DNA from: Acipenser ruthenus
Taxonomy: Eukaryota
Assembly (NCBI RefSeq): GCF_902713425.1
Contig: NC_081214.1
Location: forward strand, 10,880,641-10,944,640
Direction: 5' to 3'
DNA length: 64,000 bases
Below, one piece after another: positions 15,361 to 64,000 of the stretch. Under the pieces are notes generated by a model that did no database searches, was not told the origin of the DNA, and saw nothing but the letters and a program-made list of their open reading frames with translations. Made by a program: the position numbers and the translations under genes. Numbering within the stretch: the stretch's first letter is position 1; each line of letters starts with the position of its first letter.

Positions 15361-15366
15361 GTCTCC

Positions 15367-15516
15367 GCCTCCCGAGGGTCCGCTGCTGCTGCCGTCGCCT
15401 CCCGAGGGTCCGCTGCTGCTGCCGTCGCCTCCCGAGGGTCCGCTGCTGCTGCCGTCGCCTCCCGAGGGTCCGCTGCTGCTGCCGTCGCCTCCCGAGGGTC
15501 CGCTGCTGCTGCCGTC
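15367..15516 (+). repeat. 30-bp minisatellite x5 (cctcccgagggtccgctgctgctgccgtcg)
   Basis: Direct reading; adjacent to the 36-bp array. Confidence 0.95.
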
Positions 15517-15817
15517 GCCTGGGGTTGCCAGGGATCCTGCTTCGCCTGGGGTCGCTACACTATGGCCGGAGCCCCACGGAGGGGAGTTGCTGACCATGAA
15601 GAGGGGGAGGGAGGTCAGGAGACCAGCTCCCCCAGCGGCACTGTCGCGGCAAGATAGTGTGTGGCCGGAGCCCCGGAAGAGGGAGCTGCTGGCCACGAAG
15701 AATTGGGTGGTGCCGGACGTCCCACCATGGCCACCCCCATGGACACTGTGCTTCCCCCTCTTCCGGGACTGAGACTGAGGGGGGAGGTGGCCATTTAGGC
15801 CATGTTGTGCTTGGCAC

Positions 15818-20160: not shown

Positions 20161-21924
20161 GTAAGGACCTAACTTGTCTTTAAATCGTACTTTATTGTCA
20201 TCAGATCCTATCGTTGAGATTGTACAATAAACACGAATTCCTGTCGAGTTATATTTGCAGTGATATTTGATAGAAAGCAAAGATTAGCGAAATAATAAGT
20301 ACATTTGTATAAGTACATGTGTATTGTGAGATCTGCTTTATTAAAAAAAACAATAATAATAAATGTGGGTCTCTCTTAATGACCCTATCAGTGGTGAACC
20401 AATAGCACAGCCAGCACTCACATATCCGACCCAATCGCTTTTTTTAACTTGAGTGACGTTTAAAAGAGTGTGATGCATATCTGATTATTTCATTTTGGCC
20501 TTCTCAAACCCTTGTCTACTTCTCAGAAACCATTTTTAAACAAAGAAGAAAAGCACACACAGTCTGACAAAGCACTCTCTTGCTCTCAACTGCCTGAAAC
20601 CTTCTCTCAAGCTCTTTTGAATCTCTAGTCTAACTCTGTAGGGTGATAATGCTGCATAACAGAAAATAATAAAAATAAATGGCTGGCAGTTTATTAACTT
20701 ATTCAATATAACATAATACAAGAAAGAATGGCAACCTGAAACAAAATATTATAAAAATAATTGTTCGTAATTAATAATGATTTTTTTATACTCTTTTGTT
20801 TCAGGTTACCATTCTTGTATGACTTTTCTTTTAATAATTACTAATTACTAAGTCAAATGTAATACAAGAAATAGTAATTTGAAAGATTTTGTTTATTATT
20901 AAAAAAAAAAAGTAATTTCTTAACCTGCCTCGCTGATTAAACTAAAATGAGAAACCGAGTCAACAATAACAGATACCTACAACTGAAAGTCCCAGTAAAA
21001 CAGTACAATAACTTTGGGTAGGTGTGGCAAAGTGGTTTGTTGTGCACAGGTGTAGAGGTGATGCAGTGCTCAGGAATGATTTGAAACAACACAGTTCACG
21101 GTTAAACAGCTCTTATTTGCTGGTAAATAATAATAACTGGCTCTACACACCAAGCTGTATCGCTCAGTTAAACCACGGGATTTAATCCAGAAATATGTAG
21201 TAATAATAACACACAACACAGACATGATCACTTATCCAAACAGTGAGTGCTCTTTGTGCAGATGGTGCTATACAACAGTTGTGAAACACAGTGGTGCAGT
21301 GTAGTCCGGGTTCAATGCTGGCCTTTAGCGACAGCCCCTGGCTGACACGAAACACTCACAGTTATATCTGTAATCATTTTACTGGTCTGTCCTTGGCCAT
21401 AACAAAGGAACAGATCGCTTGGCCACATCCCATGATCTACCTTCAGTCACGCCCCCTTTGGTAGCGAGTGCAGTTACGTCTCCTCCAATCCATGACTGAC
21501 ACATCGCCTACCGCAGTAAGGCGCTGACTTCTAGTATTGTGGCTTCTCCCCCTTTCTGGATGGCCGACTTCCGACTGACCCTGGAATGAACTGTCAAACC
21601 ATCCAGTCCGGGGCACACTGTTCCTGTTATACAGCACCCTCACAGGTCGGGAGTGAGATTGTTGACTCGGATTCATTCACTCTCTGTCACAGTAGGTCAC
21701 TTATAAATACATATTTATATCAACATCCATGAACCTTCGGTTTCAAGGGTGATTAATCTGACATGGACATATCATTTAATGTCTGCCGCTTTTGTCTTGC
21801 TGAATGAAACGACATTAATTAGGTTATTGATAAGTAAAGAAAATAAAAATAGTTTGTATTCATGAACTTACAGTATTTCAACACTTGCTCACCTTCATTC
21901 TCTGACAAGTATTTATAACGAAGA

Positions 21925-24806
21925 TCTGATACTGCGCTACGCTGCCTGTGTGTAGAGTTCTGATACTGCGCTACCCTGCCTTTGTGAAGAGTTCTGATAC
22001 TGTGCTACGCTGCCTGTGTGAAGAGTTTTGATACTGCGCTGCCTGTGTGTAGAGTTCTGATACTGCGCTACCCTGCCTGTGTGAAGAGTTCTGATACTGC
22101 GCTACCCTGCCTGTATGAAGAGTTCTGATACTGCGCTACGCTGCCTGTGTGTAGAGTTCTGATACTGCGCTACGCTGCCTGTGTGAAGAGTTCTGATACT
22201 GCGCTACCCTGCCTGTATGAAGAGTTCTGATACTGCGCTACCCTGCCTGTATGAAGAGTTCTGATACTGCGCTACGCTGCCTGTGTGTAGAGTTCTGATA
22301 CTGCGCTACGCTGCCTGTGTGAAGAGTTCTGATACTGCGCTACCCTGCCTGTATGAAGAGTTCTAATACTGTGCTACGCTGCCTGTGTGAAGAGTTCTGA
22401 TACTGCGCTGCCTGTGTGAAGAGTTCTGATACTGCGCTACGCTGCCTGTGTGTAGAGTTCTGATACTGCGCAACGCTGCCTGTGTGAAGAGTTCTGATAC
22501 TGCGCTACCCTGCCTGTATGAAGAGTTCTGATACTGCGCTACGCTGCCTGTGTGTAGAGTTCTGATACTACGCTGCCTGTGTGTAGAGTTCTGATACTGC
22601 GCTACCCTGCCTTTGTGAAGAGTTCTGATACTGTGCTACGCTGCCTGTGTGAAGAGTTTTGATACTGCGCTGCCTGTGTGTAGAGTTCTGATACTGCGCT
22701 ACGCTGCCTGTGTGAAGAGTTCTGATACTGCGCTACCCTGCCTGTATGAAGAGTTCTAATACTGCGCTACGCTGCCTGTGTGAAGAGTTCTGATACTGCG
22801 CTGCCTGTGTGAAGAGTTCTGATACTGCGCTACCCTGCCTTTGTGAAGAGTTCTGATACTGTGCTACGCTGCCTGTGTGAAGAGTTTTGATACTGCGCTG
22901 CCTGTGTGTAGAGTTCTGATACTGCGCTACGCTGCCTGTGTGAAGAGTTCTGATACTGCGCTACCCTGCCTGTATGAAGAGTTCTGATACTGCGCTACGC
23001 TGCCTGTGTGAAGAGTTCTGATACTGCGCTACGCTGCCTGTGTGTAGAGTTCTGATACTACGCTGCCTGTGTGTAGAGTTCTGATACTGCGCTACCCTGC
23101 CTTTGTGTAGAGTTCTGATACTGTGCTACGCTGCCTGTGTGAAGAGTTTTGATACTGCGCTGCCTGTGTGTAGAGTTCTGATACTGCGCTACGCTGCCTG
23201 TGTGAAGAGTTCTGATACTGCGCTACCCTGCCTGTATGAAGAGTTCTAATACTGCGCTACGCTGCCTGTGTGAAGAGTTCTGATACTGCGCTGCCTGTGT
23301 GAAGAGTTCTGATACTGCGCTACCCTGCCTGTATGAAGAGTTCTGATACTGCGCTACGCTGCCTGTGTGTAGAGTTCTGATACTACGCTGCCTGTGTGTA
23401 GAGTTCTGATACTGCGCTACCCTGCCTTTGTGAAGAGTTCTGATACTGTGCTACGCTGCCTGTGTGAAGAGTTTTGATACTGCGCTGCCTGTGTGTAGAG
23501 TTCTGATACTGCGCTACGCTGCCTGTGTGAAGAGTTCTGATACTGCGCTACCCTGCCTGTATGAAGAGTTCTAATACTGCGCTACGCTGCCTGTGTGAAG
23601 AGTTCTGATACTGCGCTGCCTGTGTGAAGAGTTCTGATACTGCGCTACCCTGCCTTTGTGAAGAGTTCTGATACTGTGCTACGCTGCCTGTGTGAAGAGT
23701 TTTGATACTGCGCTGCCTGTGTGTAGAGTTCTGATACTGCGCTACGCTGCCTGTGTGAAGAGTTCTGATACTGCGCTACCCTGCCTGTATGAAGAGTTCT
23801 AATACTGCGCTACGCTGCCTGTGTGAAGAGTTCTGATACTGCGCTGCCTGTGTGAAGAGTTCTGATACTGCGCTACCCTGCCTGTATGAAGAGTTCTGAT
23901 ACTGCGCTACGCTGCCTGTGTGTAGAGTTCTGATACTGCGCTACCCTGCCTGTATGAAGAGTTCTGATACTGCGCTACACTGCCTGTGTGGAGTTCTGAT
24001 ACTGTGCTATGCTGCCTGTGTGAAGAGTTCTGATACTGCGCTGCCTGTGTGAAGAGTTCTGATACTGCGCTACGCTGCCTGTGTGTAGAGTTCTGATACT
24101 GCGCAACGCTGCCTGTGTGAAGAGTTCTGATACTGCGCTACCCTGCCTGTATGAAGAGTTCTGATACTGCGCTACGCTGCCTGTGTGAAGAGTTCTGATA
24201 CTGCGCTACACTGCCTGTGTGAAGAGTTCTGATACTGCGCTACGCTGCCTGTGTGTAGAGTTCTGATACTGCGCAACGCTGCCTGTGTGTAGAGTTCTGA
24301 TACTGCACAACGCTGCCTGTGTGAAGAGTTCTGAAACTGCGCTACGCTGCCTGTGTGAAGAGTTCTAATACTGCGCTACGCTGCCTGTGTGAAGAGTTCT
24401 GATACTGCGCTACGCTGCCTGTGTGGAGTTCTGATACTGCGCTGCCTTTGTGAAGAGTTCTGATACTGCGCTACGCTGCCTGTGTGTAGAGTTCTGATAC
24501 TGCGCTACGCTGCCTGTGTGAAGAGTTCTAATACTGCGCTACGCTGCCTGTGTGGAGTTCTGATACTGCGCTACGCTGCCTGTATGAAGAGTTCTGATCC
24601 TGCGCTGCCTTTGTGAAGAGTTCTGATACTGCGCTACGCTGCCTGTGTGGAGTTCTGATACTGCGCTACGCTGCCTGTGTGAAGAGTTCTGATACTGCAC
24701 TACGCTGCCTGTATGAAGAGTTCTGATACTGCGCTGCCTGTATGAAGAGTTCTGATACTGTGCTGCCTGTATGAAGAGTTCTGATACTGCGCTACACTGC
24801 CTGTAT
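21925..24806. repeat. 34-bp minisatellite/satellite array, about 2.9 kb, about 85 units (ctgatactgcgctacgctgcctgtgtg[t/a]agagtt) with 30-bp deleted-unit variants
   Basis: Direct reading; recurring multi-unit blocks suggest higher-order periodicity. Confidence 0.95.
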
Positions 24807-25584
24807 GGTTTTGTGACACCGACGCCATTTTGTACGCATTATGGGAGCTTTAACAGGAGGACGGGGCTCGAGGTTAATCCAAAGTGCTGGAATGCGGAAG
24901 TAACTTTTTTATGATGAGTGACCATAATAAAGACATGAAGTTTTATAATATAATAATCAATTGAAATTGTGCAGTTTATTAATCGTTGGAAGTCAGTTTC
25001 GGTATTTAATTTAAGAATCGGTAATTAACCGTATTTTTGATTAATCGCTCATCACTAGCGCCCGTAAAATTTGGAGTACAAACATGCAGAATTACAAACG
25101 TCGATTCCATTTACACTCTACATATCGTAATGCTTTTTATATTTTTGCCAACATACAATTGCCATTGTTATTGCAAATGTATGGATTTTAGTACTGATTA
25201 ATTCTATATTAGAAATATTAATTAATATTTGGAGATATGAATTTGGTTTGCAATACAATCCACAGAGAGCTTGTTTGTTTTGATGCAGTATTTACAGGTA
25301 GGGTACTCTACTTTGATGCAATGTTTACAGGGAGGGTACCCTATTAGTGGTTGGTTGTGTGGGAAAGGAGGAAACACTGCCTAATTTAGGAAAGCCACAA
25401 GAACAACCTGTGCTTTAGGCCAATGATTACCAGCTGTATATTTTCATGTATAAAGAAAGGAATAATCCCATTAAAAGGAAGAAATGGTGAACATACTTGA
25501 AAATAAATGCTAGTCAGTTAACCCCACAATTTCTTTTGCAGGTGATGTAGAAGTGGAAAGACTTGATATTTGCCCCCACTTCAG

Positions 25585-25700
25585 AGGAAGCTGTAAAGGC
25601 CTATGAGCTTTTTATAAAGGATCTTCAAGATAAGGATTTCCAGCAGCAGACAAAATTGTCAGCAGAACTGAATCTTTTAGCTTCTGAGAAAGTTAAGAAG
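25585..25700 (+). CDS. parp4: PARP4-like exon (regulatory/helical region; ...EEAVKAYELFIKDLQDKDFQQQTKLSAELNLLASEKVKK)
   Basis: Acceptor cacttcag|, donor aag|gtctgc; resembles vertebrate PARP4 DASEYFENYIEELKKQGF...QLASEQLQ (alignment from memory). Confidence 0.5.
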
Positions 25701-27775: not shown

Positions 27776-27916
27776 CAACTACTTCTTGAAGAAGCTCTGA
27801 GCAGCAGCAGCATCTCCCAGGAAGTCGCTGTTTTTGTGGAGCTGATCTGGACTGAAGCCCTTGGTTGCTTTGATGATGTGCTTGCCAGTCCTGTCAATAG
27901 CATCAGTCCCAATGAT
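27776..27916 (+). CDS. parp4: PARP4-like exon (QLLLEEALSSSSISQEVAVFVELIWTEALGCFDDVLASPVNSISPND); 5' boundary unresolved
   Basis: Matches PARP4 ALLLEEVMNSSTLSQEVSDLVEMIWAEALGHLEHMLLKPVNRISLND. Donor gat|gtaagt at 27916/17. No canonical in-frame AG acceptor was found upstream (in-frame TAA at 27752-27754). Confidence 0.5.
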
Positions 27917-28334: not shown

Positions 28335-28533
28335 GTGAGCAGGGCCGAAGGCATTCTCTTGCAGGCACGGAAAGCCATGGATGAAGGAGTTGATCAGAAC
28401 GGGTTAAGAGGCATCATGTTCGAGTTCTACACAATCCTGCAACATAAACACGGGATGGACTTTACCTTTACATTACATTACTTTACTTTACATTACCAAG
28501 AAGATGATCTCTACAAAACATGACCTCTGCCAG
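28335..28533 (+). CDS. parp4: PARP4-like exon (VSRAEGILLQARKAMDEGVDQNGLRGIMFEFYTILQHKHG...KKMISTKHDLCQ) with internal +1 frame disruption
   Basis: Acceptor ctcag|, donor gccag|gtacat. The 5' part matches VSKAEGILLLVKAALKNGETAEQLQKMMTEFYRLIPHKG. The 3' end matches ...KKADLCQ only in the +1 frame. The exon is 199 nt and carries about 22 extra nt of a tttac/attac pentamer run at about 28460-28495. Confidence 0.55.
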
Positions 28534-30450: not shown

Positions 30451-31842
30451 ATGATTACTTTTCACAGGTTTTTACAAAGGAGGACACGGACAACATGCCC
30501 GACATGTCGACATGTCGGTCTAGGAGCTCTTAAAATAAACAAATCCCCTGGGCCAGATGAGATCCTCCCAATAGTACTCAAAGAAATGAAAGAAGTTATT
30601 TACAAACCGCTAACCAAGATCATGCAACAGTCTCTTGACACAGGGGTTGTACCGACAGACTGGAAAATAGCAAACGTAATTCCGATCCACAAAAAGGGAG
30701 ACAAAACCGAACCAGGTAACTACAGACCAATAAGCCTGACTTCTATTATATGTAAACTTATGGAAACTATAATAAGATCCAAAATGGAAAATTACCTGTA
30801 TGGTAACAATATCCTGGGAGACAGCCAGCATGGTTTTAGGAAAGGGAGATCGTGTCTAACTAACCTACTGGACTTTTTTGAGGATGCAACATTGAAAATG
30901 GATAACTGCAAAGCATACAACATGGTTTATTTAGATTTCCAGAAAGCTTTTGACAAAGTCCCGCACAAAAGATTAATTCTCAAACTGAACGCAGTAGGGA
31001 TTCAAGGAAATGCATGCACATGGATTAGGGAGTGGTTAACAGGTAGAAAACAGAAAGTACTGATTAGAGGAGAAACCTCAAAATGGAGTGAGGTAACCAG
31101 TGGTGTACCACAGGGATCAGTATTAGGTCCTCTGCTATTCCTAATCTACATTAATGATTTAGATTCTGGTATAGTAAGCAAACTCGTTAAATTTGCAGAC
31201 GACACAAAAATAGGAGGAGTGGCAAACACTGCTGAAGCAGCAAAGGTCATTCAAAATGATCTAGACAGCATTCAGAATTGGGCAGACACATGGCAAATTA
31301 AATTTAATAGAGAAAAGTGTAAAGTATTGCATGCGGGCAATAAAAATGTGCATTATAAATATCATATGGGAGATAGTGAAATTGAAGAAGGGAACCATGA
31401 AAAAGGCCTAGGAGTTTATGTTGACTCAGAAATGTCTTCATCTAGACAATGTGGGGAAGCTATAGAAAAGGCTAACAAGATGCTTGGATATATTGTGAGA
31501 AGTGATGAATTTAAATCAACAGAAGTAATGTTAAAACTCTACAATGCATTAGTAAGACCTCACCTAGAATATTGTGTTCAGTTCTGGTCACCTCGTTACA
31601 AAAAGGATATTGCTGCTCTAGAAAGAAAGAGAGTGCAAAGAAGAGCAACCAGAATTATCCCGGGTTTAAAAGGCATGTCGTATGCAGACAGGCTAAAAGA
31701 ATTGAGTCTATTCAGTCTTGAACAAAGAAGACTACGCGGTGATCTGATTCAAACATTCAAAATCCTAAACGGTATAGACAATATCAACCCAGGGGACTTC
31801 TTTGACCTGAAAAAAGAAACAAGGACCAGGGGTCACAAATAG
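30451..31842 (+). pseudogene. CR1 ORF2 reverse transcriptase domain, 463-aa open segment
   Basis: RT motifs as above; the upstream in-frame region is interrupted. Confidence 0.85.
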
Positions 31843-35268: not shown

Positions 35269-35406
35269 TCTGACTTCAGTGAGGATCCATCAGATATTCC
35301 GCATTGGCAGAGTGAATGAGATGTTAGACTTCCAGAGCCAGCTTGGCAATGTCCAGCCACTGTTCCACGCCACCTCTGCTAGCAGCTTCGTTGGTATTCT
35401 TTCCAG
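35269..35406 (+). CDS. parp4: PARP4-like exon (SLTSVRIHQIFRIGRVNEMLDFQSQLGNVQPLFHATSASSFVGILS)
   Basis: Acceptor ccggtcag|, donor ttccag|gtgagt; matches SPVDVLQIFRVGRVNETTEFLSKLGNVRPLLHGSPVQNIVGILCR; phase consistent with its neighbours. Confidence 0.7.

Positions 35407-35696: not shown

Positions 35697-35758
<62 letters not shown>
35641..35758. repeat. (TATC)n/(TA)n compound microsatellite flanking the Tc1 insertion
   Basis: Direct reading. Confidence 0.95.
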
Positions 35759-35761
<3 letters not shown>

Positions 35762-37338
35762 TACTGTGCAAAAGTTTTAGGCAGGTGTGAAAAAATGCTG
35801 TAAAGTAAGAATGCTTTCAAAAATAGACATGTTAATAGATTATATTTATCAATTAACTAAATGCAAAGTGAGTGAACAGAAGAAAAATCTAAATCAAATC
35901 CATATTTGGTGTGACCACCCTTTGCCTTCAAAACAGCATCAATTCTTCTAGGTACATTTGCACAAAGTCAGGGATTTTGTAGGCATATAGTCAGGTGTAT
36001 GATTAAACAATTATACCAAACAGGTGCTAATGATCATCAATTCAATATGTAGGTTGAAACACAATCATTAACTGAAACAGAAACAGCTGTGTAGAAGGAA
36101 TAAAACTGGGTGAGGAACAGCCAAACTCAGCTAACAAGGTGAGGTTGCTGAAGACAGTTTACTGTCAAAAGCCATATACCATGGCAAGACTGAGCACAGC
36201 AACAAGACACAAGGTAGTTATGCTGCATCAGCAAGGTCTCTCCCAGGCAGAAATTTCAAGGCAGACGGGGGTTTCCAGATGTGCTGTCCAAGCTCTTTTG
36301 AAGAAGCACAAAGAAACGGGCAACGTTGAGGACTGTAGACGCAGTGGTCTGCCAAGGAAACTTACTGCAGCAGATGAAAGACACATCATGCTTACTTCCC
36401 TTCGCAATCGGAAGATGTCCAGCAGTGCCATCAGCTCAGAATTGGCAGAAAACAGGGGACCCTGGTACACCCATCTACTGTCCGGAGAAGTCTGGTCAGA
36501 AGTGGCCTTCATGGAAGACTTGCTGCCAAAAAGCCATACCTCCGACGTGGAAACAAGGCCAAGCGACTCAACTATGCACGAAAACACAGGAACTGGGGTG
36601 CAGCAAAGTGGCAGCAGGTGCTCTGGACTGATGAGTCAAAATTTGAAATATTTGGCTGTAGCAGAAGGCAGTTTGTTCGCCGAAGGGCTGGAGAGCACTA
36701 CACGAATGAGTGTCTGCAGGCAACAGTGAAGCATGGTGGAGGTTCCTTGCAAGTTTGGGGCTGCATTTCTGCAAATGGAGTTGGGGATTTGGTCAGAATT
36801 AATGGTCTCCTCAATGCTGAGAAGTACAGGCAGATACTTATCCATCATGCAATACCATCAGGGAGGCATCTGATTGGCCCCAAATTTATTCTGCAGCATG
36901 ACAACGACCCCAAACATACAGCAAAAGTCATTAAGAACTATCTTCAGCGTAAAGAAGAACAAGGAGTCCTGGAAGTGATGGTATGGCCCCCACAGAGTCC
37001 TGATCTCAACATCATCGAGTCTGTCTGGGATTACATGAAGAGAAAGAAGCAACTGAGGCTGCCTAAATCCACAGAAGAACTGTGGTTAGTTCTCCAAGAT
37101 GTTTGGGCCAACCTACCTGTCGAGTTCCTTCAAAAACTGTGTGCAAGTGTACCTAGAAGAATTGATGCCGTTTTGAAGGCAAAGGGTGGTCACACCAAAT
37201 ATTGATTTGATGTAGATTTTTCTTCTGTTCACTCACTTTGCATTTTGTTAATTGATAAATATAAACTATTAACATGTCTATTTTTGAAAGCATTCTTACT
37301 TTACAGCATTTTTTCACACCTGCCTAAAACTTTTGCAC

Positions 37339-37344
<6 letters not shown>
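35759..37344 (+). mobile_element. Tc1-like DNA transposon, family 1, copy a (about 1.59 kb, long terminal inverted repeats, TA target)
   Basis: Termini cagtactgtgcaaaagttttaggcaggtgtgaaaaaatgctgtaaag... / ...ctttacagcattttttcacacctgcctaaaacttttgcacagtact; transposase ORFs 36139-36729 and 36618-37205 (DDE: DESK..., DNDPKH, SPDLNIIE). Confidence 0.9.
36181..37205 (+). pseudogene. Tc1 transposase (frameshifted into 196-aa and 195-aa ORFs)
   Basis: N-terminal paired-like DBD MARLSTATRHKVVMLHQQGLSQAEISRQTGVSR...; C-terminal DD34E domain intact in the second ORF. Confidence 0.85.

Positions 37345-37415
<71 letters not shown>
37345..37415. repeat. (TA)n microsatellite between the two adjacent Tc1 elements
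   Basis: Direct reading. Confidence 0.95.
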
Positions 37416-37420
<5 letters not shown>

Positions 37421-39029
37421 TGCCTTGCAAAAGTATTCAGACCCCTGACCAATTCTCTCATATTACTGAATTACAAATGGTACATTGAAATTTCGTTCTG
37501 TTTGTTATTTTATTTTAAAACACTGAAACTCCAAAATCAATTATTGTAAGGTGACATTGGTTTTATGTTGGGAAATATTTTTAAGAAAAATAAAAAAAAC
37601 TGAAATATCTTGCTTGCATAAGTATTCAACCCCTGTGCTGTGGAAGCTCCCAGTTTACACCAATGAAAGAAATTGCCCTAATGAGGACACAATTACCTTA
37701 CCATTGGCCTCCACCTGTGAACCATTAAAGTTGCTGTCACATTTTCTGGATAAAAACCCCACTGTTGAAGGATCATTGGTCAGGCTGTGAATCTGAAGGA
37801 AAATGAAGACCAAAGAGCATTCTACAGAAGTTAGAGATAAAATAATACAAATGCATAGATTAGGGAAAGGGTACAAAATAATATCCAAGTGTTTGGATAT
37901 CCCAGTGAGCACAGTTGGATCAGTAATCAGGAAGTGGAAGCTGCATCACACCACCCAGGCACTGCCAAGAAAAGGCCGTCCATCAAAGCTCAGCGCTCAA
38001 ACAAGAAGGAGACTTGTGAGAGAAGCCACAGAGAGGCCAACAATCACTTTGAAGGAGCTACAGAGTTCAGTGGCTGGGAGTGGAATAATGGTGCACCAGT
38101 CAACCATATAAAGAGCTCTGCATAACACTGGCCTATATGGGAGGGTGGCAAGAAAGAAGCCGTTACTCAAAAAGTACCATCTGAAAGCACGTCTGGAGTT
38201 TGCCAGAAAGCATGAGAGTGACCCAGCTGCGATGTGGGAAAAGGTTTTGTGGTCAGATGAGACCAAGATAGAGCTTTTTGGCCAAAACTCAAAGTGCTAT
38301 GTGTGGCGCAAACCTAACACTGCCCATGCCTCAAGACACACCATCCCTACTGTGAAGTATGGTGGTGGCAGCATCATGCTGTGGGGATGCTTCTCATCAG
38401 CAGGGACTGGGCATCTTGTTAAAATTGAAGGAAGAATGGATGGAGCAACATACAGGGAAATACTGCAAGAGAACCTGCTTCAGTCTGCTAAAAAACTGAA
38501 GCTTGGGAGGAAATTCACCTTTCAGCAGGACAATGATCCCAAGCACAAGGCCAAAGCAACATTGGAGTGGCTGAAGAACAAAAAGGTGAATGTCCTACAG
38601 TGGCCCAGTCAAAGTCCTGATCTCAATCCCATTGAGAATCTGTGGCACTATTTGAAAATTGCGGTCCACAAGTGTCGTCCAACCAACATGAACAACCTGG
38701 AGCAAATCTGCCAAGATGAATGGGCCAAAATCACTCCGACACTGTGTGCAAAGCTGGTACATACTTACCCCAAAAGACTTAAAACTGTTATTGCAACGAA
38801 AGGTGGCTCTACCAAATATTAATGTGTGGGGGTTGAATACTTATGCAAGCAAGATATTTCAGTTTTTTATTTTTCTTAAATATTTCCCAACATAAAACCA
38901 ATGTCACCTTACAATAATTGATTTTGAGTTTCAGTGTTTTAAAATAAAATATCAAACAGAAGGAAATTTCAATGTACCATTTGTAGTTCAGTAATATGAG
39001 AAAATTGGTCAGGGGTCTTTTGCAAGGCA

Positions 39030-39129: not shown

Positions 39130-39228
39130 GGGACTTCTTTTGCCAAAAGTTGCGATTGAACAACACGGCATTGATAGGACGGATATTGGTAACCTTGGAT
39201 GTGGCATTTACTTCAGCAATGCATTGAG
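39130..39228 (+). CDS. parp4: PARP4-like exon, PARP catalytic domain (GLLLPKVAIEQHGIDRTDIGNLGCGIYFSNAL)
   Basis: Acceptor ttacag|, donor ttgag|gtctgg; matches GLLLPKVVEDRGVQRTDVGNLGSGIYFSDSL. Confidence 0.8.
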
Positions 39229-39322: not shown

Positions 39323-39506
39323 CACAATTCTCAAGTATTCAAAGCCTAGTGAAAGTGATGGCACGCGGCTCCTGGTGGTTTGTGACATCGCTCTCGGTGA
39401 GTGCAAGCACCTGCACAAGAAAGATTTCACCTTGGCATCTGCGCCAGCCGGGTACAGCAGTGTGCTCGGAGTGCGGCAGACTGCAGACGTTGCTTCGGAA
39501 TTCCAG
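39323..39506 (+). CDS. parp4: PARP4-like exon, PARP catalytic domain (TILKYSKPSESDGTRLLVVCDIALGECKHLHKKDFTLASAPAGYSSVLGVRQTADVASEFQ)
   Basis: Acceptor cttacag|, donor ttccag|gtactg; matches IKYSHPGETDGTRLLLICDVALGKCMDLHEKDFSLTEAPPGYDSVHGVSQTASVTTDFE. Confidence 0.85.
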
Positions 39507-41529: not shown

Positions 41530-41677
41530 GATGATGAGTATGTCGTATACAACCCCAGCCAGGTTCAAATAAAGTATGTTGTCCAGTTCTGCGTGGGAGA
41601 AGACCAGGTGAATAGTTTTCAGCCCACTGTTAATGTTACCAATGAAGAAACCCCAGCAGGTCTGTCAGACCCCCCAG
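41530..41677 (+). CDS. parp4: PARP4-like exon, end of catalytic domain (DDEYVVYNPSQVQIKYVVQFCVGEDQVNSFQPTVNVTNEETPAGLSDPP)
   Basis: Acceptor ctttag|, donor ccccag|gtgagt; matches DDEFVVYKTNQVKMKYIIKF; catalytic Glu retained. Confidence 0.8.
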
Positions 41678-42826: not shown

Positions 42827-43127
42827 AGTCTCCATTTAAAAAATAATAAAAATAAAACAAAACTAACAATGGAGAGTAAGAAAAAGAAAGAGGACAGCTG
42901 GTGTGGCTTTGGGTTTGCAAACTTATACAACTCCCCTAATGGGGCTACTTAGTAACAGCAGTTGCTATCACAGTTTAAATGATGACCCTGGAGAAAAATT
43001 AATACAATATAGAACTGATAACAAGAGTGCCGTGGTGTGTACTTGACAAGATCCCCACAGTTCTAGAATTCCAGGCTGTCCTCTTCCATGTGATTTGAAG
43101 CGGTTGCTGTTTTTTGTTTCTTTGCAG

Positions 43128-43254
43128 CAGTGACTGATGCCGATTCCAATGAGGAATACACAAACCCTTTGGACTCTGTAACAGAGGGCCTCCAGGACAG
43201 CTCTGGGAATAAGATCCCCCTGTGAAGGGCCGAATGGTAGATCTTTTAGCACAG
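43128..43254 (+). CDS. parp4: PARP4-like exon (AVTDADSNEEYTNPLDSVTEGLQDSSGNKIPL / VKGRMVDLLAQ) with internal frame disruption
   Basis: Acceptor tttgcag|, donor cacag|gtgagg. The first part matches ...KAGLQDASGNLVPL in the expected phase. The last part matches (I)KGRIIDTVAQ only after a -1 shift. The expected EDVHI codons are replaced by 2 nt (cccctg-tg-aagggc), giving an in-frame TGA. Confidence 0.55.
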
Positions 43255-43867
43255 GTGAGGATGGGAAAGTGAGACTGCAATTGAATTAATTTCTGGTTAG
43301 CACATTACCAAAAGCACATTGTGTAGAGTTCAGTGTAGAGCAATCAGGGCTTAAAGGAAAAAGCTATAACGTTAGGTGAACTGAAATGATTAGTGGGGAA
43401 TTCACTGAAGTGTTTAAAATTAAGAGGAGTTGACAAAGTGAACCCTAATCAATGCTGTAAGCACAGCACAGGGGTCAGGACCACAGGACCAGACCCAACT
43501 TGACAATATTTTGTGATTTAACCAGCTACTATGAACTGAACAAGCATCGGTGGGCTGACTGGCCTCATCTGGTTCATAGTTCTTGTGTAAATGGAGACAT
43601 TTTGAACCAGAGGGAATGCATAATACAGGGTAACTAAAATAGACTTAAGACACTATCAGCTGGTTTCACAGACCTTGACTAGCACCAGTGCTGGACTACC
43701 TTACCTAAAATAGTGGGTCTGTGAAACCAGCCGTTTATTTAATATGAACAGTACTTCTGGTAAAATAAGTGATGTCACAAAATTCAAATAGAGTTCAAAT
43801 AGAGTCAAATAGAGTTGAGTGATCCACTGTGTTGTATAATCTGCTTTTCTTTCTCTTTATTTTAGAG

Positions 43868-43951
43868 GCCAAGTATGTCTTTCCTTTGGATGAAACAGCA
43901 GCTGTATGTGGGTTTGAAGCTTTTATTAATGGAAAACATGTAGTGGGTGAG
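43868..43951 (+). CDS. parp4: PARP4-like exon, VIT domain start (AKYVFPLDETAAVCGFEAFINGKHVVGE)
   Basis: Acceptor ttttagag|, donor gag|gtaagt; near-identical to PARP4/ITIH VIT motif AKYIFPLDDKAAVCGFEAFINGKHIVGE. Confidence 0.85.
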
Positions 43952-45485: not shown

Positions 45486-45529
45486 GACACAGTAGAGAAG
45501 ATCTGTGTGAATGAAATGGAGGAAACTGG
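45486..45529 (+). CDS. parp4: PARP4-like short exon (DTVEKICVNEMEET-)
   Basis: Acceptor tttcag|, donor actgg|gtgcgt; matches DTVEKICIKEIGTK; phase continues correctly into the next exon. Confidence 0.6.
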
Positions 45530-45853: not shown

Positions 45854-45935
45854 TGGATTTGCCTTGGATATGTCGGTTGAAATGCCACATGAGATCACAC
45901 GCATTTGGTCTGGAACCCACAAAATCAAAGTCAAG
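45854..45935 (+). CDS. parp4: PARP4-like exon (GFALDMSVEMPHEITRIWSGTHKIKVK)
   Basis: Acceptor gaagtag|, donor caag|gtattc; matches SFSLTMSIEMPYVIEFIFSDTHELKQK. Confidence 0.7.
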
Positions 45936-46802: not shown

Positions 46803-46940
46803 AAAACTCAATGTAAAGCAGTTGTAATCACGGAAGAGAACAGCTCTTTAGGACCGGGTGGATTCAGCCTTACTATTGACTTGTCTGAAGTGTACCTGCC
46901 CAGGATGTGGGTTGAGAAGCACCCGGACAAAGACAGCCAG
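46803..46940 (+). CDS. parp4: PARP4-like exon (KTQCKAVVITEENSSLGPGGFSLTIDLSEVYLPRMWVEKHPDKDSQ)
   Basis: Acceptor tatttcag|, donor gccag|gtgagc; matches RTDCKAVISTMEGSSLDSSGFSLHIGLSAAYLPRMWVEKHPEKESE. Confidence 0.8.
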
Positions 46941-47865: not shown

Positions 47866-49875
47866 TATATATAAATAGTTTGAGGCTACACAGTTCGAGG
47901 CTACTGCACGGCCATTGAATCACAGGCAGGCGCTGAGGGAGAGTTTTGGAGAGCGTCTGCTTTGCAGGAACTACCCTAAAAACCCTTCAACTGCAAGACG
48001 GTGTCCAGCCAGGACCATCGGAACAGCCCGGAGTCGCTGGGAGACCAGGACTTTGGAAATAATAGAACAGAAGTAGGTCAGTTTAGGGGATGTTGATCCC
48101 AACACAGTATAGAGAGGGTTACGTAGAGCAGCGGGGTTCTGGAGCAGGACGTTCCTGTTAGTGGGACTAGCGCTCCCCATTTTGTGCGGCAAACATTTAT
48201 TTTTAGCTTTGTTTTTGTTTAGTTTCTTTATTAAATCTGCACGCCTGTTTGGTGTGTCCATACCAGTGCGCTGTGTCTGTCTCAGGGTCTTCCAGTGACT
48301 ACCCACACACGTAACACACAGCGTGTTATAAGCTCTCATTATGTTTTATTTTATAGGTGTCTAATTTGATTGAACTACTTTAATTTTACCTGACTGTTAT
48401 TATCTAAACAATCAAAACAGTGTTTTAAAATGACTCGGTAGCCCAGTGGAGCTCTCCATATGGTTTCTTTTGAAAATGTTGTCATTTCAGATAAAAAAAA
48501 AAACCTTTAAGAAGGGTTTCTTGCTGTCACAAAGCAGTCTTTCTTTATTCTAGTCTGGTGCTGATCGGGTCTGCAAAACCTGTTTTCTAAAAAGTGGTAG
48601 TTCACCTCTTCCTATGATTTATGAGAATATTAAACGTCTAGAAACAGACTTTCTTTCACTTAAAAAAAAAAAACAAAAAAAACAGTGATTAGACAAACAT
48701 GGTTGCAGCAGTACAATAAAACATATTACAATACAAACATACAAAAATAAAATATATTTAAAACACAGACAAGTTCTACTCAATACAATAAACAATCAGT
48801 TAGTGACATCAATTAGTGACAGGTGTAATCAACTACTTAAAACAAGCACAAAATGAGTGCGATCTAAGACTGTAGTTACTACAAGTGACTGTAAAGTATT
48901 CATGTATATATAGAGGTATATGTGTCCCCATAATCAATTTGTGGTAGAAATATACAAGCAATTAGCCTTTTTTTTGTAACTACAGAAAAACAAGATTTGA
49001 ATCTACAGAAAAATTTCAATTTTTTTGCAATATGGTTAATATGGGCCTTGAAATCAAGATTACTGTCCAGCCAAATACCCAGCTACTTATAGTTGTCAAC
49101 TAACTCAATGGCTTTGCTATCTAAAGTAACTAGTTGAATCAACAGTAGTTTAATTAAAAAGTAGCATTTGTTCTTGTAGCAGAGAATACCATAGCTTACT
49201 ACAGTTTAAAAGAAGCTTTAAAATACTTAAAGCTCTTTGAATGGAGTCAAAATCAGATTGTCGATTGCCAAAGAGGGGAGGGATTACATGAATATAAAAT
49301 TACATTAGATTTTTTTTTTAAAGTAACAAAAATGCTTATTCACTGCCAAACAAGAACTACTTTGGATGTGTAATGACTGCAGTATAGGATACTGACCTTA
49401 AGGTTAGGGTTTCGGTGTAGGGAGAAGATTATTTTTATTCAGAGTGCAGTGTCCTGACAGGAGAATTTTGTGTTAGCTTTGTAAGGACAGCCACTTCTGT
49501 GTATATGAAAGAGTGCTTTGAGTATGTTGATGCGATAATGATTATTGCAGCACCTGAAAAAAAACACGGGCGCTGATGGGCGTTCTAGTAATTTACAGGA
49601 CGGGTGCTGACATGCGTTGTGGGGTTTAGAGGATTAACTAGTATATTCTTGGTTGTTTAGATTAATGTATATGTTAAGTCTGAAGTCGGCCAATGACATC
49701 AATGACCAGGCACTGTTGCCAGAGCCCAAAAGCAAGGGCCAATGACAGCATTGTTCAATTTTGTCAGTCAATGTCGTCATAAAGATCTAAATAACAAGAT
49801 TGGCTGGGCAAGGACGACATTGCCCAGTACTAGGTGGTCAATGTTGAAACAATCGTAAATACAACTACTAACATA

Positions 49876-51462
49876 CAGTACTGTGCAAAAGTTTTAGGCA
49901 GGTGTGAAAAAATGCTGTAAAGTAAGAATGCTTTCAAAAATAGACATGTTAATAGTTTATATTTATCAATTAACAAAATGCAAAGTGAGTGAACAGAAGA
50001 AAAATTTACATAAAATCAATATTTGGTGTGACCACCCTTTGCCTTCAAAACAGCATCAATTCTTCTAGGTACACTTGCACACAGTTTTTGAAGGAACTCG
50101 GCAGGTAGGTTGGCCCAAACATCTTGGAGAACTAACCACAGTTCTTCTGTGGATTTAGGCAGCCTCAGTTGCTTCTTTCTCTTCATGTAATCCCAGACAG
50201 ACTCGATGATGTTGAGATCAGGGCTCTGTGGGGGCCATACCATCACTTCCAGGACTCCTTGTTCTTCTTTACGCTGAAGATAGTTCTTAATGACTTTCGC
50301 TGTATGTTTGGGGTCGTTGTCATGCTGCAGAATAAATTTGGGGCCAATCAGATGCCTCCCTGATGGTATTGCATGATGGATAAGTATCTGCCTGTACTTC
50401 TCAGCATTGAGGAGACCATTAATTCTGACCAAATCCCCAGCTCCATTTGCAGAAATGCAGCCCCAAACTTGCAAGGAACCTCCACCATGCTTCACTGTTG
50501 CCTGCAGACACTCATTCGTGTAGCGCTCTCCAGCCCTTCGGCGAACAAACTGCCTTCTGCTACAGCCAAATATTTCAAATTTTGACTCATCAGTCCAGAG
50601 CACCTGCTGCCATTTTGCTGCACCCCAGTTCCTGTGTTTTCGTGCATAGTTGAGTCGCTTGGCCTTGTTTCCACGTCGGAGGTATGGCTTTTTGGCAGCA
50701 AGTCTTCCATGAAGGCCACTTCTGACCAGACTTCTCCGGACAGTAGATGGGTGTACCAGGGTCCCCTGTTTTCTGCCAATTCTGAGCTGATGGCACTGCT
50801 GGACATCTTCCGATTGCGAAGGGAATTAAGCATGATGTGTCTTTCATCTGCTGCAGTAAGTTTCCTTGGCCGACCACTGCGTCTACGGTCCTCAACGTTG
50901 CCCGTTTCTTTGTGCTTCTTCAAAAGAGCTTGGACAGCACATCTGGAAACCCCTGTCTGCCTTGACATTTCTGCCTGGGAGAGACCTTGCTGATGCAGTA
51001 TAACTACCTTGTGTCTTGTTGCTGTGCTCAGTCTTGCCATGGTGTATGACTTTTGACAGTAAACTGTCTTCAGCAACCTCATCTTGTTAGCTGAATTTGG
51101 CTGTTCCTCACCCAGTTTTATTCCTCCTACACAGCTGTTCCTGTTTCAGTTAATGATTGTGTTTCAACCTACATATTGAATTGATGATCATTAGCACCTG
51201 TTTGGTATAATTGTTTAGTCATACACCTGACTATGTGCCTACAAAATCCCTGACTTTGTGCAAGTGTACCTAGAAGAATTGATGCTGTTTTGAAGACAAA
51301 GGGTGGTCACACCAAATATGGATTTGATTTAGATTTTTCTTCTGTTCACTCACTTTGCATTTAGTTAATTGATAAATATAATCTATTAACATGTCTATTT
51401 TTGAAAGCATTCTTACTTTACAGCATTTTTTCACACCTGCCTAAAACTTTTGCACAGTACTG
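49876..51462 (-). mobile_element. Tc1-like DNA transposon, family 1, copy c (about 98% identical to copy a), TA TSD
   Basis: Perfect termini cagtactgtgcaaaagttttaggcaggtgtg...cacacctgcctaaaacttttgcacagtactg flanked by TA; transposase ORFs 50016-50603 and 50492-51082 on the minus strand, split in the same way as copy a. Confidence 0.9.
50016..51043 (-). pseudogene. Tc1 transposase (same two shared frameshifts as copy a)
   Basis: MARLSTATRHKVVILHQQGLSQAEMSRQ... / MLWTDESKFEIFGCSRRQFVRRRAGERYTNECL...KAKGGHTKY. Confidence 0.85.
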
Positions 51463-51877
51463 TATACTGGAGGAAAAGAAAATAAACAACGCCTGTATAT
51501 TTTCAAATACTTCATTGCTTTATTCAACAAAATGTATTCAATATTTAAGAGAATCAACAATACAGATTTAAATTAACAACAATGCAGGCGCCATTTTAGA
51601 AACTATTGACTATCAATTTATAACAAACAGCTTTATAAATCAAATACATTCTCAACTATTTCCCAGACAGCGAAAATATACACGACTAAAAATAGAACAA
51701 CTGCTTAATAGCAAATATGAAACAGGAAAATGTATCAAACTCAAAAGATTTATTTACACAACATTTTCAAATGCTCAGAATGAAAAGAACGAGAAAAGTA
51801 ACAAAAACAAGTATATGCTTTGAAACGCAAAACCAGTACAATGGTAATAACAAATTACTAGCAGATGAGTCAATTTT

Positions 51878-53514: not shown

Positions 53515-53698
53515 GCTTGCATGTTGGTGTTTTGCCCAGAGTTTGCTCCTAGTAGTTTTCCAGAGGACTGTGAGGTTGTGATTTTCTTGGACAGTTCCAA
53601 TTCCATGAGGGGGGCAGTGCTGCAGGAAGCCAGAAAGATTGCTCTGCGGCTGCTGAATTCACTGCATTGCAAGCTCAATGTTGTCATATTTGGTACAG
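53515..53698 (+). CDS. parp4: PARP4-like exon, vWA domain with MIDAS motif (ACMLVFCPEFAPSSFPEDCEVVIFLDSSNSMRGAVLQEARKIALRLLNSLHCKLNVVIFGT)
   Basis: Acceptor ttttcag|, donor acag|gtaggt; matches ACMLVFQPDL...SEVIICLDCSSSMEGVTFLQAKQIALHALSLVGEKQKVNIIQFGT. Confidence 0.85.
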
Positions 53699-54090: not shown

Positions 54091-54155
54091 ACTGTAAGGA
54101 ATTGTTCCCCTGCCCACAAGATTATGTCTTGGAAGCTGCAAAGCAGTTTATAATG
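54091..54155 (+). CDS. parp4: PARP4-like exon ((G)DCKELFPCPQDYVLEAAKQFIM)
   Basis: Acceptor gtgcag|, donor aatg|gtaagt; matches GYKELFSYPKHITSNTMAAEFIMSA. Confidence 0.7.
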
Positions 54156-54255: not shown

Positions 54256-54443
54256 TTTTCGCCACTATTAATGGGCAACACTGATCTTTGGAGACCTTTA
54301 CGCAGTTTAAGCTTGCTGGCTCCTTCTAAAGGTGTCCGTAACATCCTCTTAATTTCGGACGGACACATTCAGAGTGAAGGTTTGATCCTGCGGCTATTGA
54401 AAGAGAACGCTCATCATACCAGGATTTTCACTTGTGGAGTTGG
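54256..54443 (+). CDS. parp4: PARP4-like exon, vWA (FSPLLMGNTDLWRPLRSLSLLAPSKGVRNILLISDGHIQSEGLILRLLKENAHHTRIFTCGVG)
   Basis: Acceptor tttaaag|, donor gttgg|gtgagt; matches TPTMGNTDFWKTLRYLSLLYPARGSRNILLVSDGHLQDESLTLQLVKRSRPHTRLFACGIG. Confidence 0.85.
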
Positions 54444-54597: not shown

Positions 54598-54697
54598 CCA
54601 TACAGCAAATCGACACATGTTGAGGTCCTTGGCACAGTCTGGAGGTGGAGCTTATGAGTTTTTTGACATGAAAACAAAACACAACTGGAGAGAAAAG
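54598..54697 (+). CDS. parp4: PARP4-like exon (HTANRHMLRSLAQSGGGAYEFFDMKTKHNWREK), probable GC donor
   Basis: Acceptor aatttag|. Only ending at aag|GCAAGG (54697/98) gives phase 0 into the next exon; the GT donors at 54703 and 54727 give the wrong phase. Matches STANRHVLRILSQCGAGVFEYFNAKSKHSWRKQ. Confidence 0.6.
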
Positions 54698-55261: not shown

Positions 55262-55432
55262 ATTGCCTTGCAGGTGATACAGATGGTCTTGCCGGACTGC
55301 AGCTCTGTCTCTGTGAAGTGGCAGCAGTTCAACCCCAACGCCTCCCAGCCTGTCCAGGCCCTGGCACAGCTGCACTCTGTGTTTAGTGACAATCAGCTTC
55401 TTGTTTACGGATTTGTGCCTCACTGTACACAG
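55262..55432 (+). CDS. parp4: PARP4-like exon (IALQVIQMVLPDCSSVSVKWQQFNPNASQPVQALAQLHSVFSDNQLLVYGFVPHCTQ)
   Basis: Acceptor tttgtcag|, donor acacag|gtaagc; matches IEDQMTRLCSPSCHSVSVKWQQLNPDVPEALQAPAQVPSLFLNDRLLVYGFIPHCTQ. Confidence 0.8.
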
Positions 55433-60870: not shown

Positions 60871-61740
60871 CAGCTTGGTAGCCCTGTCAGCGATCGCAGT
60901 TCAAGACACGAGAGGGGGGCGTGTCTCAATTACAGAGTGTATTTTGGTGTTTTACACCTTTTTAAAATAAGGTGTTATTTGAAAAACAGAACCAATTATG
61001 AATTTCTGTTGCTTAACAAGCGGTAATGCGAATGTATCTTCAAAAAAGCGCAAAGCCTAAAATTCCATTGCGTCTGCACTGACTACATTAAAATAACTAA
61101 ATGACTAAATACATTTTGCAACTTTTATCTGGAGTCGCAAAGGTGTTTTACGATCTGTTTTTCCCTCTGCCCCTTTTGAAAGTCAGGCTGATTGTGATTT
61201 CTATATAAACCTTAAATGTACTGTTTGAAAGAAGTTCTCCCACTGGGCCACTCTGTCTGGTGTGGTCAGCAATCAGGAGATTCAAACAATGGTTTCAACC
61301 ACCGAGCTCCAGAAGACTAAAGGCACAGTAATGGATTTATCTAGAATCTAATGGCACTTGTTAGAGAGTTCCTTAGGGTAGCACCCAGCAGTAGAAAACA
61401 TACCTGCGAGTACATATGTCACATACTTACATACTCACATTTTTATATTCAGTTTATATAGTTGATTCCATTATAATGACATTTGGCAAGGATTTATTTA
61501 GCACCAGTAATACAGTGAATCAGGTTGTATCTCTGCCCCTCTGGAAGTATATACATCAGTATGTCTCGCTTCATCTGTACAACTGATACTGACAACTTAT
61601 ACTTTTCTTCTTGTTGCACCAGAAGAATTGAAGAAAAATTCTTTAGAAAAAGCAATTGTACATAGAAATAAGAGTATACCTAATCCGGTTACCAATTCTT
61701 TAAGATTTTCTTGAGGATAAATACTTTAAATGAAACACTT

Positions 61741-64000
61741 CACTGATATGACCATACCCACAGTTGAGTAACATTACCCTACCCATGATTGAGCAACATG
61801 ACCATAGCCACGGTTGAGTAACATTACCCTACCCATGATTGAGCAACATGACCATAGCCACGGTTGAGTAACATGACCATAGCCAATATTGAGCAACATG
61901 ACCATAGCCACGGTTGAGTAACATGACCATAGCTACGATTCAGCAACATGACCATAGCCACGGTTGAGCAACATGACCATAGCCACGATTCAGAGACACG
62001 ACCATAGCCACGATTCACTGACATGACCATAGCCATGGTTGAGTAACATGACCACAGTCACGATTCAATAACATGACCATAGCCATGACTGAGTAACGTG
62101 ACCATAGCCACGATTCATTGACATGACCATAACCACGATTCAGCAACATGCCCATAGCCACGATTGAGTAACATGACCATAGCCACGATTCAGTAACATG
62201 ACTGTAGCCACAGTTGAATAACATGACCATAGGCATGGTTGAGTAACATGACCATAGCCACGATTCAGTAACATGACCATAGCCACGATTCAGAGACACG
62301 ACCATAGCCACGATTCACTGACATGACCATAGACACGATTCAGTAACATGACCATAGCCACGGTTGAGCAACATGACCATTGCCACGATGCATTGACATG
62401 ACCATAGCCACGATTCATTGACATGACCATATCCACGATTCAGCAACATGCCCATATCCACGATTCAGTAACATGACCATAGCCACGATTCAGTAACAAC
62501 ATGACCATAGCCACAATTCACTGACATGACCATAGCCACGGTTGAGCAACATGACCATAGCCACGATTCAGAGATACGACCATAGCCCCGATTCACTGAC
62601 ATGACCATAGCCATGGTTGAGTAACATGACCACAGTCACGATTCAATAACATGACCATAGCCATGACTGAGTAACGTGACCATAGCCACGATTCATTGAC
62701 ACGACTATAGCCACGATTCATTGACATGACCATAACCACGATTCAGCAACATGCCCATAGCCACGATTCAGTAACATGACCATAGCAACGGTTGAGCAAC
62801 ATGACCATAGCCACGATTGAGTAACATGACCATAGCCACGATACATTGACATGACCATAGCCACGATTCAGTAACATGACTGTAGCCACAGTTGAATAAC
62901 ATGACCATAGGCACGGTTGAGTAACATGACCATAGCCACGATTCAGTAACATGACCATAGCCACGATTCAGTAACATGACCATAGCCACAATTCACTGAC
63001 ATGACCATAGCCACGGTTGAGTAACATGACATTAGCCATGATTCACTGACACGACCATAGCCACGGTTGAGCAACATGACCATAGCCACGATTCAGTATC
63101 ATGACAATAGCCACGATTCAGTAACATGACCATAGCCATGATACAGTAACATGACCATAGCCACGATTCAGTAACATGACCATAGCCACAATTCAGTAAC
63201 ATGACCATAACCACAATTCACTGATATGACCATAGCCACAGTTGAGTAACATTACCCTAGCCATGATTGAGCAACATGTCCATAGCCACGGTTGAGTAAC
63301 ATGACCATAGCCACTATTGAGCAACATGACCATAGCCACGGTTGAGTGACATGACCATAACTACGATTCAGTAACATGACCATAGCCACGGCTGAGCAAC
63401 ATGACCATAGCCATGATTCAGCGACACGACCATAGCCACGATTCACTGACATGACCAAAGCCACGGTTGAGTAACATGACCACAGTCACGATTCAATAAC
63501 ATGACCATAGCCACGATTCAGTAACATGTCCATAGCCACGATTCAGCGACATGACCATAGCCACGATTCACTGACATGACCATAGCCACGATTCACTGAC
63601 ATGACCATAGCCACGATTCATTGACATGACCATAGCCATGATTCAGTAACATGACCATAGCGACAATTCAGCAGCATGACCATAGCCACAATTCAGTAAC
63701 ATGACCATTGCCACGGTTGAGTAACATGACCACAGTCAGGACTCAATAACATGACCATAGCCACGATTCAGTAACATGTCCATAGCCACGATTCAGCGAT
63801 ATGACGATAGCCACGATTCACTGACATGACCATAGCCACGATTCACTGACATGACCATAGCCACGATTCACTGACATGACCATAGCCGCGATTCATTGAC
63901 ATGACCATTGCCACGGTTGAGTAACATGACCACAGTCAGGACTCAATAACATGACCATAGCCACGATTCAGTAACATGACCATAGCCACGATTCAGCGAC
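61741..64000. repeat. 25-bp satellite (acatgaccatagccacgattcagta; variants ggttgagca/attcactga), about 90 units, starting with a 62-bp higher-order dimer; runs off the window end
   Basis: Direct reading; the many 60-100-aa minus-strand ORFs (MAMVMLLNRGYGHV...) are translations of this array. Confidence 0.95.

Follow-up and report, generated by a model that had tools for sequence, protein, structure and literature searches.

The window (the whole stretch of 64,000 nucleotides from Acipenser ruthenus that was analysed, with a GC content of ~40%) contains a parp4-like gene. The base composition and the wealth of introns indicate a vertebrate. tblastn searches with PARP4 proteins, first the human one and then database entries, placed ~20 collinear exons on the + strand, between ~25.5 kb and 61.3 kb. 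The exons beside 43128–43254 matched PARP4 with E-values of 1e-9 to 1e-29, which excludes a chance likeness. The nearest database proteins came from A. ruthenus (P0010, 466 residues, named 'Poly [ADP-ribose] polymerase 4') and from the paddlefish Polyodon spathula (P0074, a partial PARP4-like sequence of 369 residues). The best matches were all annotated as PARP4 (sterlet, paddlefish, birds, shark, frog, teleosts), and PARP1/2-type proteins (PF02877, PF05406) ranked far lower. Protein identity to the window gene was about 80–90% for the paddlefish protein over the exons in common and 50–60% for PARP4 of bird, shark and mammal; across birds, shark, frog and teleosts it was about 50%. The listed identity of P0010 was only 76% over 68% of the query because its model skips exons; wherever the same exons are covered, it is near-identical to the window.

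As reference for the 5' part we used the paddlefish locus (L002, on CM030290.1), which is 92–96% identical in exons and serves for the 5' half only, with a 500-N assembly gap just past the start of exon 9. At this gap (L002 22821–23320) the 'PARP4-like, partial' model of paddlefish comes to its end, and an unrelated FYVE_2-domain gene follows beyond it on the opposite strand. The scaffold may be wrongly joined here, or paddlefish parp4 may itself be a truncated copy. Contig SCEB01004359.1 (L001), which encodes P0010, came from an independent sterlet assembly (GCA_004119895.1); loci of catshark (L003) and of the cyprinid Sinocyclocheilus grahami (L004, LCYQ01S003696.1) were used for exon comparison. 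The features of the gene are as follows:

20296–20302, + strand: deletion junction; ~7.1 kb present in paddlefish (L002 6795–13941, coding exons 1–4) are missing, from collinear blastn blocks
20436–20518, + strand: deletion junction; ~1.6 kb present in paddlefish (L002 14077–15723, coding exon 5) are missing, from collinear blastn blocks
25542–25700, + strand: E6, nonsense codon TAG at 25548–25550 where paddlefish has AAG (alignment with L002 19159–19447; tblastn)
27777–27916, + strand: E7 (27779–27916) with its acceptor, AA at 27777–27778 where paddlefish has AG (alignment with L002 21550–21820)
28335–28533, + strand: E8, 25-nt microsatellite-like insertion (CCTTTACATTACATTACTTTACTTT) at ~28465–28489 (alignment with L002 22150–22420)
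32448–32608, + strand: E9, intact
35269–35406, + strand: E10, intact; the PARP catalytic domain starts here
39130–39228, + strand: E11, PARP catalytic domain, intact, followed by a 94-nt intron
39323–39506, + strand: E12, PARP catalytic domain, intact
41530–41677, + strand: E13, intact; encodes the last part of the PARP domain and a linker, and ends in phase 1
43128–43254, + strand: E14, linker plus first VIT strand, homologous to catshark exon L003 16747–16908
43220–43227, + strand: junction of a 13-nt deletion in E14, with CTG (Leu) at 43220–43222 and in-frame TGA at 43223–43225
43866–43951, + strand: E15, truncated at its 5' end, with only (E)AKYVFPLDETAAVCGFEAFINGKHVVGE left; identical in L001
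44279–44365 and 44588–44752, + strand: E16 and E17, remainder of the VIT domain, intact
45486–45529, 45854–45935 and 46803–46940, + strand: E18, E19 and E20, intact
53515–53698, 54091–54155 and 54256–54443, + strand: E21, E22 and E23, vWA domain, intact
54598–54697 and 55262–55432, + strand: E24 (with a GC donor) and E25, vWA domain, intact
61247–61333, + strand: E26, a probable exon (ATLSGVVSNQEIQTMVSTTELQKTKGTVM) with GG at the place of the acceptor AG; no recognisable parp4 exon follows it in the window

The introns are retained, with ~20 exons spread over 36 kb and GT-AG boundaries apart from one GC-AG intron. Exon boundaries are common to the window, catshark and a cyprinid, and the introns are collinear with those of paddlefish. 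A change of frame between 39232 and 39315 in the tblastn output was considered as a lesion and rejected, as it proved to be the normal 94-nt intron. We repaired the translation at four places: the TAG was masked, the 25-nt insertion removed, and padding added to E14 (13 nt) and E15 (46 nt). The result was one open frame of 899 codons from E6 to E25, with canonical splice sites including the one GC-AG intron, and its translation matched the Pfam PARP, VIT and VWA profiles. The PARP catalytic domain (PF00644, E = 2.8e-32) covers profile positions 2–198 of 199, and the catalytic H, Y and E positions, read directly in the translation, are retained in LFHAT, GIYFS and DDEYVVY. It is followed by a VIT domain (PF08487, E = 2e-28) that is matched only at profile positions 31–111 of 111, and then by a vWA domain (PF13768, E = 6e-19; PF00092, E = 1.7e-9). 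Judging from best matches, domain order and common exon boundaries, we assign the gene to the PARP4 lineage.

Several repeats lie in and around the gene. Upstream of the parp4 remnant, at 14196–15520, lies a minisatellite (GC 0.69) in which a 36-nt unit is repeated 33 times and then a 30-nt unit 5 times; the long ORFs that it creates on either strand are spurious. A 34-nt satellite of ~88 copies (21925–24804) lies in the intron that precedes E6. A related repeat occurs at the matching position in paddlefish (L002 16658–18520), so the array predates the split of sturgeons and paddlefishes. Directly downstream of the last parp4 exon, ~90 copies of a 25-nt tandem repeat extend over 61748–63996; this array is also found in L001. 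Two Tc1-like transposons of 1.6 kb (35755–37348 and 49873–51466) that are 98.4% identical and lie in opposite orientation occupy different parp4 introns, and in both copies the transposase ORF is split in two. A more distant Tc1-like transposase ORF is located at 38145–38822 and a reverse-transcriptase ORF at 30451–31842.

We then turn to E14, the exon in which the initial annotation had placed a disruption. Its acceptor reads ...tttctttgcag/CAGTGACTG at 43127/43128 and its donor GCACAG/gtgagg at 43254/43255. Both candidate donors of E13 end in phase 1, so that E14 is read as (G)CA GTG ACT ..., that is, A VTDADSNEEYTNPLDSVTEGLQDSSGNKIPL. This in-phase reading ends ...GLQDSSGNKIPL and runs into the TGA. 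The conserved stretch VKGRMVDLLAQ lies one frame back, from GTG at 43222–43224 to CAG at 43252–43254, and ends at the donor in phase 0. The sequence thus agrees with the claim of an exon that stops in phase and whose conserved frame resumes after a -1 shift; the lesion position of 43225–43235 given with that claim was a few bases off.

We aligned the window copy by MAFFT with catshark, guppy, frog, tinamou and sloth and with a human sequence. The pattern PL-(E/Q)x(I/V)x-(I/V)(K/E) is present in six of six reference vertebrates and comprises four residues more than the window copy. E14 measures 127 nt, while 140 nt (2 + 46 codons) are needed to keep the phase. Taken together, the four missing residues and the difference in exon length define the lesion as four codons plus 1 nt, or 13 nt, which is the approximate size that had been proposed. 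The ancestral sequence at this point is the one deduced from distant vertebrates, as the paddlefish locus reaches its assembly gap before exon 14. In intact orthologues the Pfam VIT profile starts at the L of 'PL', and catshark and frog match profile positions 1–111, compared with 31–111 in the window copy. The deletion therefore sits at the N-terminal edge, or first strand, of the VIT domain; the lesion stood up to this comparison, whereas its placement in a linker before the domain did not. A cryptic donor within E14 (CCT/GTGAAG) was rejected, since it is a poor site and its use would skip the conserved KGRxxDxxAQ strand.

Other lesions are found on both sides of E14. In the 5' region, the flanks of the 7.1-kb paddlefish segment align at window positions 20296 and 20302, only six bases apart, and the segment missing between them includes the start ATG as well as the BRCT domain. 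Paddlefish coding exons 1–5 gave neither protein nor DNA matches anywhere in the window; start codon and BRCT domain are lost. E6 follows with its nonsense codon and E7 with its altered acceptor, for which the closest upstream AG would bring in an in-frame TAA. The insertion in E8 is of the TTTAC/ATTAC type and gives a frameshift and a premature stop, and the corresponding switch of frame was seen in tblastn.

E15, downstream of the deletion, encodes only (E)AKYVFPLD...GE. Its first ~46 nt, which would specify VxxFQxYTNxxxxPI(E), a core strand of the VIT domain, are missing. In catshark (L003 17278–17412) and Sinocyclocheilus (L004 6746–6883), these 16 residues share one exon with AKYVFPLD. 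The VxxFQxYTN segment was not found displaced to another place, neither in a three-frame reading of the 612-nt intron nor in a short-peptide tblastn of the whole window, which returned only chance matches of 5–6 residues. Use of the acceptor ag/AG results in a frameshift and use of agag/GCC in an in-frame loss of 16 residues. The lesions in E14 and E15 truncate the N-terminus of the VIT domain, in agreement with a profile match only from position 31. In S. grahami, tblastn did not find the exons that lie between catalytic domain and VIT exon (L004 5268–6743), and the annotated PARP4-like protein of this cavefish carries an unrelated 24-residue N-terminus. This cyprinid genome was duplicated recently, and the locus may be a degraded copy as well.

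At the 3' end, PARP4 homology breaks off abruptly past 61333, at ...KTKGTVM. A weak 'ALVREF' (compare ALIRDY) is found in another frame ~20 nt downstream of E26, suggesting one more frameshift. The GG acceptor and the break in homology may represent a further, seventh lesion. The raw translation of the concatenated exons is full of stops. This parp4 copy carries at least six independent inactivating events, with the E14 deletion among them. The latter had been counted as the second disruption of the gene; it is a disruption, but at least the fifth or sixth. A full-length PARP4 cannot be produced from the window locus.

It is conceivable that a lesion of this kind is only apparent, the gene being intact in the animal and the reference carrying a local indel error near the C5 run at 43216–43220. 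The deletion junction does adjoin this CCCCC homopolymer, and one inserted base would restore the downstream frame. However, even after such a 1-nt correction, the four conserved VIT residues would still be absent. The initial annotation had itself weighed sequencing errors, and the contig from GCA_004119895.1 answers this point, as over 43050–43330 it matches the window at 100% identity. This assembly is probably the Illumina-only draft of PMC6739705, which cites only the BioProject PRJNA491785, and it stems from another sterlet. Over four blocks totalling 20.4 kb, it is 99.7–99.9% identical to the window and therefore represents the same locus from another assembly of the sterlet or a very close relative. 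It agrees at every base of exons E12–E18, with the 13-nt deletion junction within L001 16793–16959. Elsewhere in the 20.4 kb the two sequences differ by 31 substitutions and 16 gap columns, which indicates that the assemblies are independent. Given this identity at the lesion and the other lesions of the gene, a common error at a single site is not credible, and an error specific to one assembly is very unlikely. Five further lesions of varied types in the same gene cannot all be errors, and we regard an intact gene behind a faulty reference as having a negligible chance. Nor does it seem at all probable that the locus has been remodelled into a shortened functional gene, in which an internal promoter and alternative splicing yield a PARP-VIT-vWA or a vWA-only product. 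Exons 9–13 and 16–25 are intact with good splice sites, and the alternative acceptor agag/GCC at 43868 would hold E15 in frame. However, E14 can neither be read nor skipped in frame (127 nt, TGA in phase), and the lost segments are the most conserved VIT strands, including VxxFQxYTN, which leaves Pfam positions 1–30 unmatched. Upstream, E6 to E8 add a nonsense codon, a lost acceptor and a frameshift, and neither a start codon context nor evidence of a promoter was found for a shortened gene.

How long the copy has been decaying can be judged from what is left of it. Four repairs suffice to restore the 899-codon frame, and exons 6–25 are otherwise open and well conserved, which points to a recent decay. 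The dN/dS value, which the initial annotation had named as a way of following the decay, was 0.30 against paddlefish (E6–E9, 168 codons, 14 synonymous and 17 non-synonymous differences, dS = 0.15); being a pairwise value over the whole sturgeon-paddlefish divergence, it has little power and by itself shows no relaxation. At sites invariant in five other vertebrates, private substitutions amounted to 11.8% in the window copy, compared with 5–13% in other lineages. From these measures we conclude that purifying selection acted on the copy through most of its past and that its inactivation is recent.

The comparison of the two sterlet assemblies bears on the same question. Nine of the 31 substitutions are exonic, although exons account for only 9.8% of the alignment (binomial P = 0.002); non-synonymous changes make up six of these nine. 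Between 33891 and 59994, the differences are concentrated in and beside E10, E11, E19, E21 and E24. Exonic differences in these proportions are compatible with lost constraint; their clustering looks like patches from a second, diverged copy. They could have arisen through relaxed constraint, through gene conversion from a second parp4 copy or through the mixing of paralogous reads in one assembly.

We interpret the locus as an unprocessed parp4 pseudogene in which a genuine 13-nt deletion is one of at least six inactivating events, probably the redundant copy left by a whole-genome duplication (WGD), and give this reading a probability of roughly 0.92. One of the two WGD copies would have been redundant and freed from selection once the copies began to diverge. 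The six events are the loss of exons 1–5, the nonsense codon, the splice acceptor change, the 25-nt insertion, the 13-nt deletion and the ~46-nt loss. The 13-nt deletion takes out four codons plus one base at the first VIT beta-strand and brings the TGA in frame. Any transcript would contain premature stops and would presumably be degraded or give no functional protein. As an object, the locus would be an ordinary unprocessed pseudogene in an anciently duplicated genome. The sterlet genome retains 9,914 duplicate pairs next to 4,175 singletons, which corresponds to 70% retention and 30% single genes (PMC7269910). Its rediploidization is described as segmental and protracted (PMC7269910; see also PMC10199039), which fits a copy that was long constrained and decayed only recently. 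The proposal of a decaying gene copy is thus supported, with at least five further disabling lesions in the same gene. Its suggested setting in a duplicated genome is documented as far as the sturgeon WGD is concerned (PMC7269910); the origin of this copy as a redundant duplicate is what we infer. The window copy would probably be the redundant one from that duplication.

The main competitor to a redundant duplicate is a unitary loss, in which the window locus is the only sturgeon parp4 copy, recently inactivated, so that no functional parp4 is left. PARP4 is dispensable in mice, in line with such a loss. The only annotated sterlet protein of the gene (P0010) is a patchwork that skips damaged exons, and no second sturgeon PARP4 was present among the protein database matches. 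Queries with the middle of the protein, the paddlefish N-terminus and the segment from the C-terminal part of VIT to vWA gave no sturgeon or paddlefish match other than P0010 and P0074. However, among the PARP4 entries obtained from this database, whatever the species, none exceeded ~810 residues; full-length models thus appear to be out of its reach, and the missing match to a second, intact sturgeon copy is uninformative. Moreover, the differences between the assemblies cluster in and beside exons (P = 0.002), as patches from a second copy would, and parp4 has been kept across sharks, teleosts, frogs, birds and mammals. We consider a unitary loss rather unlikely. If true, a vault component would have been knocked out naturally in a basal ray-finned fish that evolves slowly.

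With a redundant, decayed duplicate as the preferred reading, the significance of the locus is mainly practical, in that it should carry a pseudogene annotation. The model behind P0010 leaves out E11, E14 and several of the vWA exons and runs from E13 straight into the truncated E15; this 466-aa protein is best regarded as an annotation artefact that stitches together undamaged exons of a pseudogene. The locus also offers a clean and datable case of duplicate decay in a rediploidizing genome, with six mutationally varied lesions in an otherwise intact frame of 900 codons. It would have a bearing on vault or PARP4 biology only if an intact partner copy were absent. A full-text literature search for PARP4 together with sturgeon found no prior description.

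Vertebrate PARP4 (vault PARP, vPARP) comprises BRCT, WGR-like, PARP catalytic, VIT, vWA and MVP-interaction domains. In the window gene, exons and domains follow the same order between the WGR-like region and vWA; the C-terminal MVP-interaction part would fall past the end of the window. Unlike functional PARP4, the window copy has no BRCT exons and no start codon, contains premature stops and frameshifts, and has the first ~30 positions of its VIT domain destroyed. The human PARP4 pseudogenes PARP4P1, PARP4P2 and PARP4P3 arose from segmental duplication in primates. Like them, the window locus is a non-functional partial copy of the PARP4 family, but it is unrelated to them in origin and lineage. 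Another parallel is given by unprocessed pseudogenes left by duplicate loss after WGD, for example the sterlet hoxd14 copy (PMC7269910). The window copy, whose origin by duplicate loss is probable, resembles such pseudogenes in having kept its introns and its native genomic context and in being disabled through small indels and partial deletions together with a nonsense codon and a splice-site change.
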